IMG/VR virus record: IMGVR_UViG_2744054675_000008 | Coordinates: 1-10,577 of that record | From: a virus | Lineage: Duplodnaviria; Heunggongvirae; Uroviricota; Caudoviricetes | Direction: 5' to 3' (one strand) | DNA length: 10,577 bases | Shown: piece by piece, positions 1,542-5,180 of the stretch | Position numbering within the stretch: the stretch's first letter is position 1 | Layout: every line of letters starts with the position of its first letter | The notes under the pieces: model-generated | Seen by the model: only the letters and a program-made list of their open reading frames with translations | Databases searched by the model: none | What the model was told of the DNA's origin: nothing | Position numbers and translations under genes: made by a program

Positions 1542-2423
1542 TTACATAGATGTTTCGTTTAATTCTTCCCGACGAACGCTGTAAACGTCGGTGGCTTTTG
1601 CCAGCAGTTCTTCATCATCTGAAAGTTTTTGTGCAATGTATTTGTAAGCCTTATCCAGTTCGGAGACAGTGCTGTAATTCATCGCTGCGCTGGTAAAGGC
1701 CATCAGCATTTCTTCTGGATCACGGCTATCCGCTTTACGCGTTTGCTCATCAGGCTTTTTCGCTGGTTTAGCGTTGATCAGACTGTTCATTCCCGCAGCA
1801 GTGGTCGTTTGCGGAGTAATGTCTCGCTCAACGCGCGGTGCCGTTTCCTGTAATTCGTCAGGGGTGTAAACACCGAGAAGTACATCAGGAGCGTGCAGGC
1901 GAGCCCATCGTTTCGTGCAAAGATAGGCAAGCTGCTGGCGCGGATCCTGTTCCCACAATGGAGAGTTACGCACTCCGGCTTGCGCCATACTGATGGTAAG
2001 CTCACGGGGTTCTGCTTCTCCTTTAAGAACTGCTGACACAGTTACCGTCAGATTCGGTGATTTATCTGTTTTGCCGTTAACATTCGACCAGTCACCGCTC
2101 CAGCGATAATTCAGGCGTGTCGCTAGCAGGCTGGAAGAGGATACGACCGCGTTTACCAACTGTGCTTCGTAGCCTAACGTTCCGTTTACCACATGCGTTT
2201 TCTGCGCCACGGCGAAAGGATTCATTCCCCACTGTGCCGCCTGCATGGTCACCGCCAGACAATCGGCAGGTTTGCCTTCAAGATGTTTCGGTACAGTCGC
2301 TTTGCTTTGTGACATCAACTCCGCGAAACGCACCAGTTGATTCATGCCCTCCGGGCTGAAGATTGCCGCAGCAGTACCTACAGTTGCGCCTGGTTGTGAT
2401 GTGATTGCGATATCATTGCTCAT
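1542..2423 (-). CDS. Phage single-strand annealing protein, Red-beta (Bet) family recombinase
   Basis: 293 aa. C-terminal region matches lambda Bet as I recall it (…ARL…Y…DE…ERDITP motif) and an N-terminal segment resembles the Bet core. ATGA overlap with the upstream exonuclease gene, AGGA Shine-Dalgarno. Family assignment from memory, not from a search. Confidence 0.7.
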   Translation of the reverse strand: MSNDIAITSQPGATVGTAAAIFSPEGMNQLVRFAELMSQSKATVPKHLEGKPADCLAVTMQAAQWGMNPFAVAQKTHVVNGTLGYEAQLVNAVVSSSSLLATRLNYRWSGDWSNVNGKTDKSPNLTVTVSAVLKGEAEPRELTISMAQAGVRNSPLWEQDPRQQLAYLCTKRWARLHAPDVLLGVYTPDELQETAPRVERDITPQTTTAAGMNSLINAKPAKKPDEQTRKADSRDPEEMLMAFTSAAMNYSTVSELDKAYKYIAQKLSDDEELLAKATDVYSVRREELNETSM

Positions 2424-3241
2424 ACGTACATATCCTGTTTACGTGCCCAGTCAGGGCGTTTAATAATTTCCACTCCGCCCCACTCATCGTTGATGCGGCA
2501 TTCGTGATAGGTATTCAGATCCCGGCGGAACAGAGCGTGCCCGGCATCGACATCCGGCGCATCCAGCTCGAACACGCGTACCGGATACCGACCACAATCA
2601 ATGCTTTCGCTCACGGCAAGAAAGAAAAAACCATGCGGCTGACCAGTAACCTTCATTGCGCCTTCGCGGTACATTGCGTCCTGCACGTGGTAGCGGAATT
2701 CCTCGATGTGGCGTGCAAAACGGTCCATATCTGCAACCTTTTTCACGTCGACGATCACGTTGTGCTCGTTCAGCCATTTGTCTGGACGAATGCGGCACAA
2801 CTCACCAGTCTCTTCATCGTTCCAGTACATTGATGCTTCGCAGTAACCAGGTGCTTCCAGCATCCAGCGTGCAGCCGGGTGAGCCATTGCGCTATCACGC
2901 ATCAGCTCCAGTTTTCGCCACTGCTCGACATCAAGTACCGTAATACCCATATCCGCCACATCACGAAGAAATGCTTCTTCGTCAGCTTTACCTTGTTTTG
3001 TCCGACGATCGAATTTCGGTGAAACAATGAAGCGTTTGTCGAACTCTCCAGGCTCCAGAAGCAGACAGTGCAATGCGGTTCCCATATCCAGTGCAGACTT
3101 TTTCTCTTCGTCTTCTGGTGCTGCCTGAACCCATTTAAGAAGCGCCGGATTCTTGGCAACCATGTCCAGTTGCGACTTACTCACGCCGTCACCGGCGTGG
3201 TAGTCTTCGTTGCTGATGTCGAAATAAATTCCCGGTTTCAT
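2420..3241 (-). CDS. RecB-family PD-(D/E)XK exonuclease (RecE C-terminal-domain-like phage exonuclease)
   Basis: 273 aa. Motifs in order: RPD (Asp), IVDVKKV (D-x-K) and QDAMY (QxxxY) characteristic of RecB-like nucleases. Sits immediately upstream of and overlaps the annealing-protein gene, the classic exo/annealase pair. GAGGGA Shine-Dalgarno. Confidence 0.7.
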   Translation of the reverse strand: MKPGIYFDISNEDYHAGDGVSKSQLDMVAKNPALLKWVQAAPEDEEKKSALDMGTALHCLLLEPGEFDKRFIVSPKFDRRTKQGKADEEAFLRDVADMGITVLDVEQWRKLELMRDSAMAHPAARWMLEAPGYCEASMYWNDEETGELCRIRPDKWLNEHNVIVDVKKVADMDRFARHIEEFRYHVQDAMYREGAMKVTGQPHGFFFLAVSESIDCGRYPVRVFELDAPDVDAGHALFRRDLNTYHECRINDEWGGVEIIKRPDWARKQDMYV

Positions 3242-3537
3242 GCCGCGTCCCTCTGTCCATCAAGCTGATCCGCCAGATCCCAGCGGGCGATAATTGCCAT
3301 TGCCTCTCGCCGATAGGCATCCATCAGTTCTTCGAACTCAGGGCTGTCTTTAGCAGCCTCCAGTACTTCCTGACGAACGCCTTTGCCTGTTACAACGTCG
3401 AAAGTTGAGGACAGTTGATGAAGTCGGATGCTCTCAATCAGTTCAACTTGTCGGTCATATAGCTGTTCTGACAGGCGGTAGTCCTTGTCGAATGCCAGCA
3501 TGATTTTTTGAAGATTTTTCTGCTGATTAACGTTCAT
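3238..3537 (-). CDS. Hypothetical phage protein (99 aa from the ATG at 3537), upstream of the exonuclease gene
   Basis: In-frame ATGs at 3552 and 3537; the one at 3537 is preceded by GGGAGGG at ideal spacing. Stop overlaps the exonuclease start (ATGA). No family recognised; position is where Gam/Kil-type accessory genes sit in lambdoid phages. Confidence 0.5.
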   Translation of the reverse strand: MNVNQQKNLQKIMLAFDKDYRLSEQLYDRQVELIESIRLHQLSSTFDVVTGKGVRQEVLEAAKDSPEFEELMDAYRREAMAIIARWDLADQLDGQRDAA

Positions 3538-3539
3538 TA

Positions 3540-3692
3540 TCAGCCCTCCCATATCTCGTTATCGTTGGCCACATCGCGAGCTTCTTTGCTGACGAAAGCC
3601 CACTTAATGCCTTCCTGTAAGGTGCGGAACTTCCAGCTCATGAATCCGCATGCAGTAACGCAGTACCAACCGTTGATGATTTTCCACTGCAT
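3540..3692 (-). CDS. Small ORF (50 aa, MQWKIINGWYCVTACGFMSWKFRTLQEGIKWAFVSKEARDVANDNEIWEG), first gene downstream of the predicted PL; not in the supplied ORF track
   Basis: ATG at 3692-3690 preceded by GAGGT with 8-nt spacing; stop TGA at 3542-3540 overlaps the start region of the next gene. Translation verified codon by codon. Trp/Cys rich, not Arg rich. Confidence 0.5.
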   Translation of the reverse strand: MQWKIINGWYCVTACGFMSWKFRTLQEGIKWAFVSKEARDVANDNEIWEG

Positions 3693-3710
3693 AACTTGTT
3701 ACCTCGGTCT

Positions 3711-3727
3711 GTTACCGTTTAGGTAAT
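3711..3727. promoter_or_regulatory. Operator site OL-a (GTTACC gttta GGTAAT), overlapping -10/+1 of predicted PL
   Basis: 17-bp inverted repeat of the RTTACC-N5-GGTAAY family, seen 7 times in three intergenic clusters. Confidence 0.6.
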
Positions 3728-3754
3728 AATTATGCGTATTTGGTTTGATGTCAA
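3726..3754 (-). promoter_or_regulatory. Predicted leftward early promoter (PL-like): -35 TTGACA, 17-bp spacer, -10 AATTAT
   Basis: Consensus -35 hexamer read on minus strand (plus 3754-3749) and a -10 with the conserved A and T positions (plus 3731-3726); flanked by two operators. Confidence 0.5.
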
Positions 3755-3772
3755 TAGATATGAGTTAAAAAA

Positions 3773-3789
3773 ATTACCCATTAGGTAAT
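3773..3789. promoter_or_regulatory. Operator site OL-b (ATTACC catta GGTAAT), perfect palindrome upstream of the PL -35
   Basis: Perfect 6-bp inverted arms with 5-bp spacer; centre is 62 bp from the OL-a centre. Confidence 0.6.
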
Positions 3790-3795
3790 AGTATA

Positions 3796-3826
3796 GGCAA
3801 TAAAAAAGCCGCCAGAAGGCGGCTTA
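3796..3826 (-). terminator. Rho-independent terminator of the repressor gene
   Basis: On the minus strand: stem AAGCCGCC / GGCGGCUU with UUCU loop followed by UUUUUUAUU; the repressor stop codon lies in the stem. Confidence 0.7.
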
Positions 3827-4429
3827 CTTACTGAAAAGTATTATTTTATTGTTTGTTTTTTCGTTCTGGTTGATGACAAATTCACTGTAACTTTCGATCT
3901 TTGCTTTCTCGGTTTCAGGTAACAATGCGTAGCGCGAGCGGTCATAGTTGATAGTTGCAGGGTCGTGCGGGTGAATCAGTAGTTCATATCCGTGACGCCC
4001 GAATGCAGATGCAACATTCTCCAGGGTGGAAATGGAAACGCTGACCTCATTGTTTAACAGGCGGCTGATTGTCACCTGGGCGACGCCGGATGCGCGGTGA
4101 AGTTTTCCCTGTGTTGAAAGGTCGCGGCTTTCGCTCATCCAGCGTTCCAGGTTGTGAGCCGCCAGCTGACCAATGTCGCTTGGGCCGACAGGCTGAAAAC
4201 CTTCCTGAGAAAGCGAGCGATCGATATCAAGCCAGTTACGGGGTTTATTGGCGGCAGCTTCAATTTTTCGCGCAACCTGGTCGCCGATAACCTTCTTGCC
4301 AAGAGCCCAGCGGTTTACCAGATTTGCCTGAGTTCCAAGTTTTTCAGCCATCCGCGTCTGAACACCATTGAATTCACGGTCGATCAAGTCGTTGAGATTT
4401 TGCCTGCGGACGTCCTGGATACTTTTCAT
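3824..4429 (-). CDS. Prophage repressor (CI-functional analogue) with two HTH_XRE-like domains and no LexA-like peptidase domain
   Basis: 201 aa. N-terminal segment GVQTRMAEKLGTQANLVNRWALGKKVIGDQVARKIE and C-terminal segment ASGVAQVTISRLLNNEVSVSISTLENVASAFG both fit the XRE-type HTH pattern. No GDSM-type Ser/Lys autocleavage motifs. Divergent from the Cro-like gene, flanked by operator clusters and followed by a terminator. No obvious Shine-Dalgarno. Confidence 0.7.
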   Translation of the reverse strand: MKSIQDVRRQNLNDLIDREFNGVQTRMAEKLGTQANLVNRWALGKKVIGDQVARKIEAAANKPRNWLDIDRSLSQEGFQPVGPSDIGQLAAHNLERWMSESRDLSTQGKLHRASGVAQVTISRLLNNEVSVSISTLENVASAFGRHGYELLIHPHDPATINYDRSRYALLPETEKAKIESYSEFVINQNEKTNNKIILFSK

Positions 4430-4483
4430 TTTCTGGAAAATCGCCTCATATATGAATCAGTAGATGATTCAATTTAAAGCAAT

Positions 4484-4500
4484 ATTACCCAATAGGTAAA
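4484..4500. promoter_or_regulatory. Operator site OR-1 (ATTACC caata GGTAAA)
   Basis: Member of the 17-bp inverted-repeat family in the repressor/Cro intergenic region. Confidence 0.55.
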
Positions 4501-4517
4501 TGCACCCCATAGGTAAC
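4501..4517. promoter_or_regulatory. Operator site OR-2, degenerate (tgcACC ccata GGTAAC), abutting OR-1
   Basis: One perfect half-site (GGTAAC) and a partial one; centre 17 bp from the OR-1 centre. Confidence 0.4.
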
Positions 4518-4522
4518 TATCC

Positions 4523-4558
4523 TTGATTTTTGTTACCTTATGGGTGAATATTTATTAT
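4523..4558 (+). promoter_or_regulatory. Predicted rightward early promoter (PR-like) for the Cro-like gene; exact hexamers ambiguous
   Basis: Candidates: -35 TTGTTA (4530-4535) with -10 TATTAT (4553-4558) at 17-bp spacing, or -35 TTGATT (4523-4528) with -10 GAATAT. Both overlap operator OR-3. Confidence 0.45.
4532..4548. promoter_or_regulatory. Operator site OR-3 (GTTACC ttatg GGTGAA), overlapping PR
   Basis: Perfect left half-site, partial right half-site; mirror image of OR-2. Confidence 0.5.
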
Positions 4559-4583
4559 CTGAAATAAATATCAGGCAATAGCT

Positions 4584-4814
4584 ATGAGCGATAACGGACA
4601 TTTCGATTTCAAAAAGCACTGGCTTGCACTTACTCCGGATGAGCGTGAAGCCTTCGCACAGGAAGCCGGAACGACGAGTCATTATATCCAGACTCACTTA
4701 ACAGGTAAGCGCAAAATGCCAGGTAAAGTATTGATGAATGGGCTTTTTAAAGCCTGTAAAACAAGACAATGGCTGCGCTCAAAAGCAGAACTGGCATACT
4801 TCTTCTACTCATGA
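4584..4814 (+). CDS. Cro-like small HTH regulator (76 aa), divergent from the repressor gene
   Basis: Position (first gene of the rightward operon) and a central HTH-like segment FAQEAGTTSHYIQTHLTGKRKMPGKVL. Family not identified beyond Cro/YdaS-like resemblance. Confidence 0.55.
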   Translation: MSDNGHFDFKKHWLALTPDEREAFAQEAGTTSHYIQTHLTGKRKMPGKVLMNGLFKACKTRQWLRSKAELAYFFYS

Positions 4815-4836
4815 TATCCAGCTACAACCCTCTGTA

Positions 4837-4860
4837 GACCGCCACCCGGCGGTCTTTTCA
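4837..4860 (+). terminator. Rho-independent terminator just downstream of the Cro-like gene (tR1-like position)
   Basis: Stem GACCGCC / GGCGGTC (7 bp, perfect) with ACCC loop followed by TTTTCATAT; preceded by a second small stem-loop CTACA accctc TGTAG (4822-4837). Confidence 0.7.
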
Positions 4861-4963
4861 TATCTATTCGTACCTCAAAGGTAATAAAAAACCAAATGTG
4901 GTTGATCTTTTTTTTGTGTCAGCACAAAATGACCGTAATCCCAATACCAATAACAGGGCTTAC

Positions 4964-5165
4964 CATGGAAATCATTACACGTATTGATGCCGCAAAGCGC
5001 GGACTTAAACGCTACTACACCGGAAAAACATGTAAGCACGGACATGACAGTGAACGCTGGGTTTACAACGGACACTGTGTTGAGTGCACCATGGAATCAA
5101 ACCGTCGTATCAGGGCAGAGATTAAGCAGATCATGATTAATTCCTCCCCACAACATTCAAGCTGA
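4964..5165 (+). CDS. Small zinc-ribbon-like protein (66 aa) at the cII position; function unknown
   Basis: ATG at 4964 preceded by AGGG at 6-nt spacing (the ORF track's longer 4896 start lacks a Shine-Dalgarno). Sequence TGKTCKHGHDSERWVYNGHCVECT carries C-x2-H-x-H and H-C-x2-C, suggestive of metal binding. Confidence 0.5.
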
Positions 5166-5180
5166 TAGCGGAGATTAATC

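Follow-up and report, generated by a model that had tools for sequence, protein, structure and literature searches.

Relatives of the repressor analysed here include those of the Salmonella phage SPC32H and of phage epsilon15. In SPC32H, the lysogenic switch consists of Rep, Ant and LexA (Kim & Ryu 2013; Kim et al. 2016; PDB 5D50 and 5D4Z). The domain roles and the mechanism used below follow the summaries of PMC9638917, PMC9986798, PMC7380047 and a bioRxiv preprint. According to these, the N-terminal helix-turn-helix (HTH) domain of SPC32H Rep is the DNA-binding domain (DBD), the middle HTH-like domain (MDD) dimerises, and the C-terminal domain (CAD) tetramerises the protein and binds Ant. 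The same summaries describe Rep as inactivated by the antirepressor Ant, and not by RecA-stimulated self-cleavage.

Other phages use comparable logic. As summarised from Lemire et al. (2011), Gifsy-1, -2 and -3 combine a non-cleavable repressor with a small LexA-controlled antirepressor, which is encoded outside the immunity region and can act in trans; both partners of this interaction appear to be dimeric, in contrast to the tetramers described for SPC32H Rep and Ant. Summaries of coliphage 186 (CI/Tum) and P22 (c2/Ant) also report inactivation of the repressor by antirepressor binding, with Tum under LexA control and P22 remaining SOS-inducible without its ant. The 186 and P22 proteins were unrelated to Rep and Ant by the searches made.

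Identity and neighbourhood of the repressor gene

We analysed a 10,577-nt stretch of DNA, referred to as the window. Its minus-strand ORF of 201 aa (Table 1), which a first-pass annotation had read as a repressor gene from the raw sequence, is real. With a probability of about 85%, we assign it as Rep, the lysogeny repressor of a phiV10-like E. coli prophage (genus Uetakevirus, epsilon15-like), resembling SPC32H Rep in mechanism. The protein shares 99.5% identity with phiV10p40 (191 aa) and likewise with ORF21 of vB_EcoP_ZX5 (ZX5; 191 residues), and 41% identity with SPC32H Rep over its full length (BLASTP, 196 columns). In a phmmer search against the PDB, chain 5D50_A (“Repressor”, SPC32H Rep) matched residues 1–190 with an E-value of 3.9e-41; the epsilon15 gp38 record already cites 5d50_A. 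The tblastn matches to Rep at E ≤ 1e-5 among 50,697 phage records came only from Uetakevirus-type phages and one Pseudomonas phage, and no Gifsy record appeared among them, in a set that may lack Gifsy; the search thus offers no sign of close relatedness to the Gifsy repressors (GfoR, GfhR, GtgR). NCBIfam searches with Rep, Ant and the products of the cro-like and xis-like genes yielded no informative family. In ZX5, overexpression of ORF21 abolished free phage, lowered lysis-gene mRNA by > 99.9% and blocked the lytic cycle.

The rep gene is placed between a leftward RecET operon and a rightward operon with cro-like and replication genes, and ATTACC-N5-GGTAAT operators lie on either side. This synteny is common to SPC32H, phiV10 and epsilon15, and the cro-like gene occupies the position of phiV10p41 and SPC32H_042. 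The likeness to SPC32H thus covers the three-part build of the protein, the gene neighbourhood, the TTACC-N5-GGTAA operators and their spacings.

Table 1. Features of the window around rep and at the prophage junction.
Feature	Coordinates	Strand	Basis or remark
rep, 201-aa lysogeny repressor, SPC32H-Rep type	3824..4429	minus	ORF and homology
N-terminal HTH DNA-binding domain, residues 1–70 (HTH: helices 24–31 and 35–43)	4220..4429	minus	model helices, Pfam, homology
Second XRE-HTH-like five-helix domain, residues 85–152, putative equivalent of SPC32H Rep MDD	3974..4177	minus	Pfam, model, 5D4Z
Putative CAD equivalent (Ant binding/tetramerisation), residues 153–201, with frameshifted 10-residue tail	3827..3973	minus	SPC32H CAD alignment
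Homopolymer, A6 on the coding strand (A7 in phiV10)	3856..3861	minus	DNA and protein comparison
Intrinsic terminator directly 3′ of rep	3806..3825	minus	terminator also annotated in phiV10
O_L, two perfect TTACC-N5-GGTAA palindromes, 62 bp apart	3712–3726, 3774–3788		motif scan
Leftward early promoter between the O_L palindromes	TTGACA 3754–3749, AATTAT 3731–3726	minus	promoter scan
O_R, three sites	4485..4547		4485–4499 perfect; 4502–4516, 2 mismatches; 4533–4547, 1 mismatch
Rightward promoter	TTGTTA 4530 ... TATTAT 4558	plus	−35/spacer overlapped by operator 4533–4547
Cro-like first gene of rightward operon, 76 aa	4584..4814	plus	PHROG 35 “transcriptional repressor”, E 5.6e-13
Extra operator-like site, 1 mismatch	4870..4884		directly after terminator 4836–4855
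Third operator pair, both perfect, 62 bp apart	6816–6830, 6878–6892		before DUF1064 gene
Probable rightward promoter inside third operator pair	TTGATT 6851 ... TTTAAT 6879		read by eye; no call in scan
Crossover zone within DUF551 gene	9033..9409	plus	BLAST of window vs both prophage types

Domain organisation and predicted fold of Rep

The AlphaFold model of Rep was all-helical (pLDDT 79). It comprised a bundle at residues 4–59, a disordered linker at 61–84, a second bundle at 85–151 and C-terminal helices at 164–199. Pfam HTH_3 matched two stretches of the protein, the better one at residues 106–147 (E 1.4e-9), and an HTH of the YdaS type was matched at residues 21–61. The two HTH-like segments of the first-pass annotation correspond to both profile matches and model bundles, and the RefSeq record of phiV10 also notes “two helix-turn-helix motifs” on the orthologue. 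A Foldseek search against the PDB returned Rep chains of 5D50 and 5D4Z as all of the top 12 matches, followed by generic XRE-HTH proteins; the 5D4Z match spanned residues 89–190.

The N-terminal domain carries positive charge and the highest conservation in the Rep family. Its identity to the SPC32H Rep counterpart is 54%, and NLVNRW in the recognition helix is shared by both. Conservation is lower in the second HTH domain, which is slightly acidic. Identity to SPC32H Rep in the dimerisation and Ant-binding parts amounts to 34–45%, with ~ 45% in the Ant-binding domain. In the CAD region, 17 of 38 residues are identical to the SPC32H CAD, and the motif I-x-YD-x3-Y-x2-LP-x2-EK is kept. By homology, residues 85–152 would form the dimerisation domain, and residues 153–201 would mediate CAD-type Ant binding and tetramerisation. 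BLASTP found no pairwise similarity between the two HTH halves, and a recent duplication was rejected on this ground. The description of the HTHs as “tandem” thus holds for fold and profile, and not for recent duplication.

Absence of self-cleavage features

The first-pass annotation had found no S24 peptidase motifs, and our searches agree. No Pfam match to Peptidase_S24 was obtained for Rep at E ≤ 1. The S24 fold was absent from the significant Foldseek PDB matches of the model. The 201-aa protein contains neither an Ala-Gly nor a Cys-Gly dipeptide, and no Cys either. Rep resembles lambda CI and the LexA-family S24 repressors in role, genome position, divergent promoters and several operators on each side. 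It differs from them in lacking an S24 domain or cleavage site, in its all-helical C-terminal half and in an induction that would be indirect, through LexA and Ant. Rep carries no protease domain and, by analogy with SPC32H, would stay uncleaved during induction.

Proteolysis of Rep after all, at a cryptic self-cleavage site or by a partner metalloprotease of the ImmA/IrrE type, is very improbable in our view. XRE-type repressors such as DdrO do occur among the weak fold matches. However, besides the missing S24 domain and dipeptides and the all-helical fold, no protease-like gene was present among the scanned window ORFs, and the homologous SPC32H system is summarised as using antirepression.

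The antirepressor gene and its LexA control

In all seven related phages checked, an ant gene of 85–86 aa adjoins the tail-fibre gene and is preceded by a LexA box, located ~ 37 nt before the ant ATG and perfect in six of the phages. The Ant proteins of phiV10 (phiV10p24) and SPC32H are 88% identical, and Ant is far better conserved than Rep. The two proteins co-occur in 35 of the 36 Rep records and in all 35 Ant records of the 50,697-record set.

No perfect CTGT-N8-ACAG was found in the window, as the first-pass annotation had stated, and the five matches with one mismatch are at chance level (3.6 expected). Neither the window nor the examined 20.6 kb of its source contig contained ant, a Bro-N gene or a LexA box; we attribute the absence of the expected inducer from those 20.6 kb to the apparent split of the prophage described below. 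The expectation of an inducer outside the window agrees with the position of ant beside the tail-fibre gene in the relatives. Antirepressor-dependent SOS induction is likewise supported, through homology to SPC32H Rep and its inactivation by Ant, and Ant would be expected to act on phiV10-type Rep in the same way.

Unlike SPC32H, phiV10-type phages encode a second Ant-domain protein, fused to Bro-N. In ZX5 this is ORF4 (“anti-repressor”), with p23/p22 as its phiV10 counterpart. Residues 150–226 of ORF4 show homology to SPC32H Ant (5D50_E, E 1e-13), and this part shares 42% identity with the small Ant. With ORF4 overexpressed, the prophage titre was 1e6 instead of 1e9, a 1000-fold loss of lysogeny, and rep mRNA decreased by 75%; the Bro-N-Ant fusion explains this “anti-repressor” result. 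The overexpression effect, the Ant-homologous domain and the location of the fusion gene, which directly follows ant on its strand, all speak for the fusion (ZX5 ORF4; phiV10p23/p22) as the main inducer of phiV10-type phages in place of the 85-aa Ant, or for both acting together. We regard this as unlikely, since SPC32H lacks the fusion gene, as do the regions around ant in epsilon15 and BUCT554, while the phiV10 copy is frameshifted next to an intact small ant and separated from it by an annotated terminator. Moreover, the LexA box is found immediately before the small ant.

Operators, promoters and translation start

The operator motif, allowing ≤ 2 mismatches, occurs at 12 sites in the window against 2.75 expected, and none of 200 shuffles reached 12. 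It is also enriched phage-wide, with 14 sites in phiV10 (0.64 expected) and 18 in SPC32H (0.66 expected), and the epsilon15 record marks it as repressor sites throughout the genome, including the place equivalent to O_L. The 62-bp O_L pair and the third operator pair are present in phiV10, SPC32H and epsilon15 as well. The O_R spacing of 17 and 30/31 bp recurs in SPC32H and epsilon15, and the extra site downstream of the cro-like gene is conserved in phiV10 (33112).

According to the first-pass annotation, the operators have one perfect and one degenerate half-site, and the tandem HTH build might explain this. The first part applies to three of the eight operator-like sites in the window; the other five are perfect palindromes, which also form the majority of sites in phiV10, SPC32H and epsilon15. 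The explanation fails, as tandem HTHs are not needed for operator asymmetry when most operators are perfect palindromes and the second domain of the homologue dimerises. With half-sites of 5 bp spaced by one helical turn, the palindromes agree with two identical domains.

A model in which both HTHs contact DNA, so that one monomer reads two unlike half-sites and yields perfect/degenerate operators, could draw on the asymmetric sites and on the second domain scoring as a bona fide HTH_3. Many single-HTH proteins correspond to the second domain plus the C-terminal motif alone, and therefore their HTH presumably binds DNA. Nevertheless, we consider this model highly unlikely given the predominance of perfect palindromes, the lower conservation and slightly acidic character of the second domain, and the summarised structure of the homologue, with an N-terminal DBD and a middle dimerisation domain.

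The reported lack of a Shine-Dalgarno sequence was borne out: the only candidate before rep is a GAGG 14 nt upstream of the ATG, outside the normal distance, and SPC32H rep is likewise without one. Leaderless translation, suggested in the first-pass annotation alongside low-level translation, is unsupported, as no promoter is positioned to start transcription at the ATG. The promoter scan found none for rep on the minus strand at 4430–4583, and no -10-like hexamer was visible by eye ~ 7 nt before the ATG.

The probable prophage split and the C-terminal frameshift

The source of the window is a 47.7-kb draft contig (assembly GCA_001620375.1). The left 9.4 kb are collinear with complete phiV10-like prophages, which reside at guaA, and the right 1.5 kb with the terminal part, the distal P_L operon, of a common lambdoid prophage at sbcB. 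The crossover falls in a 377-bp stretch common to both prophage types. The window appears to join the two prophages, as an inversion of ~ 0.55 Mb would, and for this reason no ant or late genes lie nearby. In this respect the locus differs from those of phiV10 and ZX5. Two other origins were rejected. A satellite or PICI-like element (~ 13 kb with two integrases) does not agree with the collinearity with two prophages and the crossover in shared sequence; a simple deletion does not agree with the ~ 0.55 Mb between sbcB and guaA in K-12 and the flipped sbcB side.

The window copy also differs from SPC32H Rep in its C-terminus. Relative to phiV10p40 and ZX5 ORF21, the loss of 1 nt in a homopolymer shifts the frame of the last three codons (...EKNKQ* to ...EKTNNKIILFSK*), and a ten-residue tail replaces them. 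The frameshift accounts for the length of 201 aa, compared with the 193–196 aa usual in the family, and the exact 201-aa protein was seen on one contig only. We also note that the frameshifted tail adjoins the Ant-binding domain.

We tentatively interpret rep as a functioning immunity gene in a “half prophage” left by the guaA/sbcB inversion, which would respond in trans only, or be uninducible if ant has been lost. This is a possibility and falls short of a probable assignment. It is doubtful, though worth weighing, whether the gene is instead a leftover without a working induction circuit, either in a defective or mis-assembled element (a chimera at the prophage-shared repeat) or in a decaying remnant. 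The position of the junction inside the shared 377 bp of a draft contig, its occurrence in 0 of 5,426 complete E. coli genomes, the frameshift private to the source contig and the layout with two integrases and no late genes are compatible with such a leftover. On the other hand, the gene strands on both sides all fit one sbcB–guaA inversion, the early-region ORFs are all intact and 97–99% identical to those of functional phages, and the frameshift changes the last three codons only.

Proposed mechanism and implications

In the proposed mechanism, the N-terminal HTH of Rep would bind 17-bp ATTACC-N5-GGTAAT palindromes overlapping or bracketing the leftward, rightward and third early promoters. 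The second HTH-like domain would dimerise Rep and the C-terminal domain would tetramerise it, and as a tetramer Rep could hold two operators at once. Upon DNA damage, LexA would leave the box before ant, the 85-aa gene beside the tail-fibre gene. Ant would then bind the C-terminal domain and split Rep tetramers into weakly binding dimers, turning on the early operons. Any ant that persists in this genome would act in trans over a distance of ~ 0.55 Mb. Our analysis shows the homology, the fold, the operators and the conserved placing of LexA box and ant in relatives; the oligomeric states of Rep, Ant binding and non-cleavage are predicted from homology to SPC32H.

The first-pass annotation compared the locus with Gifsy prophages. 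The induction logic is indeed alike; however, the closest precedent is SPC32H/epsilon15, of the same virus genus, and not the Gifsy prophages. The phage family as a whole shares the Gifsy strategy of induction, which does not prove common descent. A non-cleavable repressor with a LexA-controlled antirepressor elsewhere was deduced correctly from raw sequence, which is informative for calibration. This core inference is right but already known, as summaries of the work on SPC32H, a phage of the same genus, place the genetic and structural establishment of this mechanism in 2013–2016.

The assignment has value for annotation, as databases label Rep copies mostly “helix-turn-helix domain-containing protein” and list the small ant as “hypothetical protein”. 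The split-prophage context, the Bro-N-Ant fusion and the stronger conservation of Ant than of Rep may interest phage biologists; the last hints at cross-induction between related prophages. If the half prophage is real and responds in trans, the source of Ant would be its other half or another Uetakevirus, either co-resident or superinfecting. SOS would then activate RecET together with O/P replication in situ at guaA, yielding no virions.

Relatives of the repressor

The window corresponds to the early region of a prophage of the phiV10 type (genus Uetakevirus, epsilon15 group); across positions 3500-5200, identity to phiV10, the O157 typing phages 9 and 10, PAS61, ZX5 and others was 97-98%. 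Left of the rep ORF (201 codons, minus strand, 4429 to 3824) lay RecT and a RecE-like nuclease; to its right came a cro-like gene and genes for a DnaT-like initiator and a lambda-P-like loader. The RecT and RecE-like reading frames (1542-3241) were separate with a 4-base overlap; phiV10p37 is annotated as a RecE-RecT fusion, and the homology between the window and phiV10 was broken at 1920-2146.

Rep was 99.5% identical to the ZX5 repressor and, across 191 residues, to phiV10p40; 'two helix-turn-helix motifs' are already mentioned in the RefSeq note on phiV10p40. The repressor of the Salmonella phage SPC32H (33739-34335 of its genome against 3824-4429) aligned across the whole length with 41% identity. 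A PDB sequence search returned 5D50 chain A, 'Repressor' (E 3.9e-41, residues 1-190), and also 5D4Z, a C-terminal fragment. The basic N-terminal domain was the most conserved part of the family, and the NLVNRW recognition helix of SPC32H Rep was retained. Full-length relatives comprised only ~16 cluster representatives among 1.84 billion, all of ~190-200 aa. A word-indexed search gave 85 close relatives; the named ones all came from Enterobacterales genera, mainly Enterobacteriaceae plus Serratia, and nearly all 85 were labelled merely 'helix-turn-helix domain-containing protein'.

Many proteins of 100-175 aa consisted of the second HTH and the C-terminal INYD..Y..LP..EK motif alone, often with a basic tail (P0102, P0103, P0108, P0111, P0116 and P0123; some match Pfam BetR). 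Other relatives had only the N-terminal domain in common. Rep looks like a single-HTH regulator that acquired an extra N-terminal HTH.

Domain architecture and translation of rep

The factual part of the first-pass annotation of rep is confirmed. The product has two HTH-type segments (two Pfam HTH_3 stretches, the best at 106-147 with E 1.4e-9; residues 21-61 match the HTH-type model YdaS). It lacks S24 motifs, with no Pfam match to Peptidase_S24 even at E ≤ 1. The window contains no perfect CTGT-N8-ACAG LexA core, five one-mismatch matches being at chance level, and no Shine-Dalgarno stands at the usual distance, the sole GAGG upstream of the ATG being 14 nt away.

The AlphaFold2 model, built from 50 homologues, was all helical with a mean pLDDT of 79 (Table). 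The best 12 fold matches were all chains of 5D50 ('Rep-Ant complex from Salmonella-temperate phage') and 5D4Z, followed by ordinary XRE-HTH proteins. No S24 fold was among the matches, so the cryptic LexA-like fold sought in the C-terminal half was absent. The 201-aa protein also lacked cysteine and the dipeptides Ala-Gly and Cys-Gly. No pairwise similarity was detected between the two HTH halves; 'tandem HTH' therefore applies at the level of fold and profile, and is not a sign of recent duplication.

Rep relatives measured 193-196 aa, compared to 201 aa in the window. The homopolymer A7 of phiV10 was A6 at 3856-3861 (coding strand), and this 1-nt loss shifted the frame of the last three codons (NKQ to TNNKIILFSK), directly after the Ant-binding helix. 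The exact 201-aa protein was on record from a single contig only; either a sequencing error in the homopolymer or a private mutation could account for the frameshift. The start codon was consistent with the N-terminus of the crystallised protein, and the SPC32H orthologue likewise lacked a canonical Shine-Dalgarno. Leaderless translation, which had been proposed for rep, is unsupported, since a promoter scan of the rep strand in the upstream intergenic region found nothing and no -10-like hexamer occurred ~7 nt before the ATG.

Operators and the role of the second HTH

Five copies of the palindrome TTACC-N5-GGTAA were perfect (3712, 3774, 4485, 6816 and 6878); those at 4533 and 4870 had one mismatch, and the copy at 4502 had two. 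At up to two mismatches the window held 12 sites against 2.75 expected, a count reached in 0 of 200 shuffles. The Rep palindromes formed three groups (Table).

Table. Operator groups in the window and segments of the AlphaFold2 model of Rep
Feature	Position	Description
Operator pair	3712-3788	62 bp apart; brackets strong leftward promoter just downstream of rep
Three operators	between rep and cro-like gene	last overlaps rightward promoter
Operator pair	6816-6892	62 bp apart; brackets probable promoter ahead of DUF1064 gene
Four-helix bundle	Rep residues 4-59	AlphaFold2 model
Disordered linker	Rep residues 61-84	AlphaFold2 model
Five-helix bundle	Rep residues 85-151	AlphaFold2 model
C-terminal helices	Rep residues 164-168 and 172-199	AlphaFold2 model

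In phiV10, SPC32H and epsilon15 the same motif was found phage-wide at nearly every operon boundary, including sites that adjoin ant and the tail-fibre gene, precede int or lie close to the terminase gene, and the 62-bp and 17+30-bp spacings were common to these phages and the window. The consensus from 54 sites was A-TTACC-(A/T-rich)5-GGTAA-T. In the GenBank entry for epsilon15, seven such sites are already annotated as 'repressor, lysogeny', with 5d50_A cited for the repressor; the Rep operators are thus not new.

Papers that summarise the SPC32H work assign DNA binding to the N-terminal domain of its Rep and dimerisation to the middle domain; the C-terminal domain is described as mediating tetramer formation and also as binding the small antirepressor Ant. 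In these summaries SPC32H Rep binds DNA as a tetramer, the dimer binds only weakly, and the two DNA-binding domains that occupy one palindrome are proposed to belong to different dimers.

The tandem HTH had been suggested as an explanation for operators with one perfect and one degenerate half-site, which would require the second HTH to contact DNA as well. That HTH presumably binds DNA in the many single-HTH proteins that carry it with the C-terminal motif, but such contact in Rep is at odds with the roles assigned to the homologue's domains. Moreover, the half-sites are mostly perfectly symmetric and one helical turn apart, and the N-terminal domain is basic and conserved, so this explanation is not needed, and it is unlikely. 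Two identical N-terminal domains reading the symmetric half-sites fit the data.

After the cro-like gene, a terminator (4836-4855) was followed at once by an operator-like site, GTACCTCAAAGGTAA, ending at 4884, and by a small conserved ORF at 4896-5165 (PHROG 1081; 66 aa in the annotation of relatives). The arrangement at 4836-5165 suggests that entry into the replication genes is under separate control.

A probable antirepressor circuit

In the SOS response, as described for SPC32H, LexA self-cleavage allows Ant to be made, and Ant inhibits the repressor by protein-protein contact. By homology, the window Rep would have the same domain roles, bind DNA as a tetramer and be inhibited by Ant after LexA self-cleavage.

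In SPC32H, ant adjoins the tailspike gene ~14 kb from rep, with a perfect LexA box before it. At the equivalent position, phiV10p24 (20543-20800) was 88% identical to Ant (19676-19936 in SPC32H) and its LexA box was TACTGTGTATTTATACAGT. Seven phages of Escherichia, Salmonella, Enterobacter and Klebsiella had one fixed layout, in which a Rep-type palindrome was followed after 54 bp (53 bp in the phage from Klebsiella) by the LexA core, and the LexA core after ~37 nt by the ant start codon. The core was perfect in six of the seven. Among 50,697 phage records, 36 had a full-length Rep homologue and 35 had Ant; Rep was present in all 35 Ant records, and Ant was missing from just one of the 36 Rep records, BP9 (PP488543.1). 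This record (138 kb) and PH444 (PP350014.1, 115 kb) are unusually long 'phage' records containing the immunity region, and may be composite assemblies.

With the ZX5 repressor overexpressed, free phage reportedly fell to zero, and mRNA for holin and endolysin dropped by 99.97-99.99%; overexpressed ORF4, the ZX5 'anti-repressor', brought the prophage titre down from 1e9 to 1e6. The authors described ORF4 as a Bro-N protein, nothing more. We found that residues 150-226 share homology with the Ant of SPC32H (5D50 chain E, E 1e-13) and are 42% identical to the small ZX5 Ant. Judged by these alignments, ORF4 (179-874 of the ZX5 stretch) is a Bro-N domain fused to a C-terminal Ant-homologous domain; the ZX5 experiment thus pitted an Ant-fold protein against this Rep. 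With the fusion gene alongside the small ant, phiV10-type phages have two Ant-domain proteins; the phiV10 counterpart of ORF4 (p23/p22, 19551-20230) was split by a frameshift.

Antirepressor-dependent induction, as the first-pass annotation proposed, is supported by the strong homology, the conserved architecture of genes and sites, and the experiments on near-identical and related proteins.

A probable split prophage

The exact Rep protein was encoded on contig LSZR01000189.1 of NCBI assembly GCA_001620375.1, where the window (14429-3853 of the contig stretch analysed) was exactly the DNA between two integrase genes. One flank carried integrase 1, guaA, guaB and xseA. The guaA side is the normal attachment site of the phage group, reported also for ZX5 and occupied by a complete prophage in strain GPEC1186. 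The other flank carried a xis-like gene, integrase 2, sbcB and plaP. The match to complete phiV10-like prophages ended at 9409, and from 9033 on the window matched the distal P_L operon of a lambdoid prophage; this common prophage adjoins sbcB in 217 complete genomes and encodes a LexA-family cI of its own. The crossover zone (9033-9409) lay inside the DUF551 gene, in sequence shared by both prophages.

In K-12, sbcB(+)/plaP(-) are ~0.55 Mb from guaA(-)/guaB(-)/xseA(+). The sbcB side of the source contig was flipped relative to K-12, and every strand matched one inversion. A junction from a ~0.55-Mb inversion with endpoints in the common DUF551-gene segment fits these data; a draft-assembly chimera at the shared DUF551 repeat is an alternative, and the same junction occurred in none of 5,426 complete genomes.

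The 20.6 kb of the source contig analysed contained neither a LexA core nor any gene for terminase, head, tail or lysis proteins, Ant or Bro-N. The expectation that the inducer lies outside the window holds for the phage family; in the source genome, it does not lie in the contiguous element.

Significance

The Rep-Ant system is already known: SPC32H supplied the genetics (2013) and the structure (2016), epsilon15 and phiV10 were annotated, and ZX5 was tested in 2022. New, though minor, are the apparent split of the prophage, the frameshift in the homopolymer, the fusion of Bro-N with Ant, and an Ant far more conserved between phiV10 and SPC32H (88%) than Rep (41%; ~45% in the Ant-binding domain). 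With operator half-sites and recognition helix the same in both, phiV10- and SPC32H-type phages might cross-induce each other and even be cross-immune.
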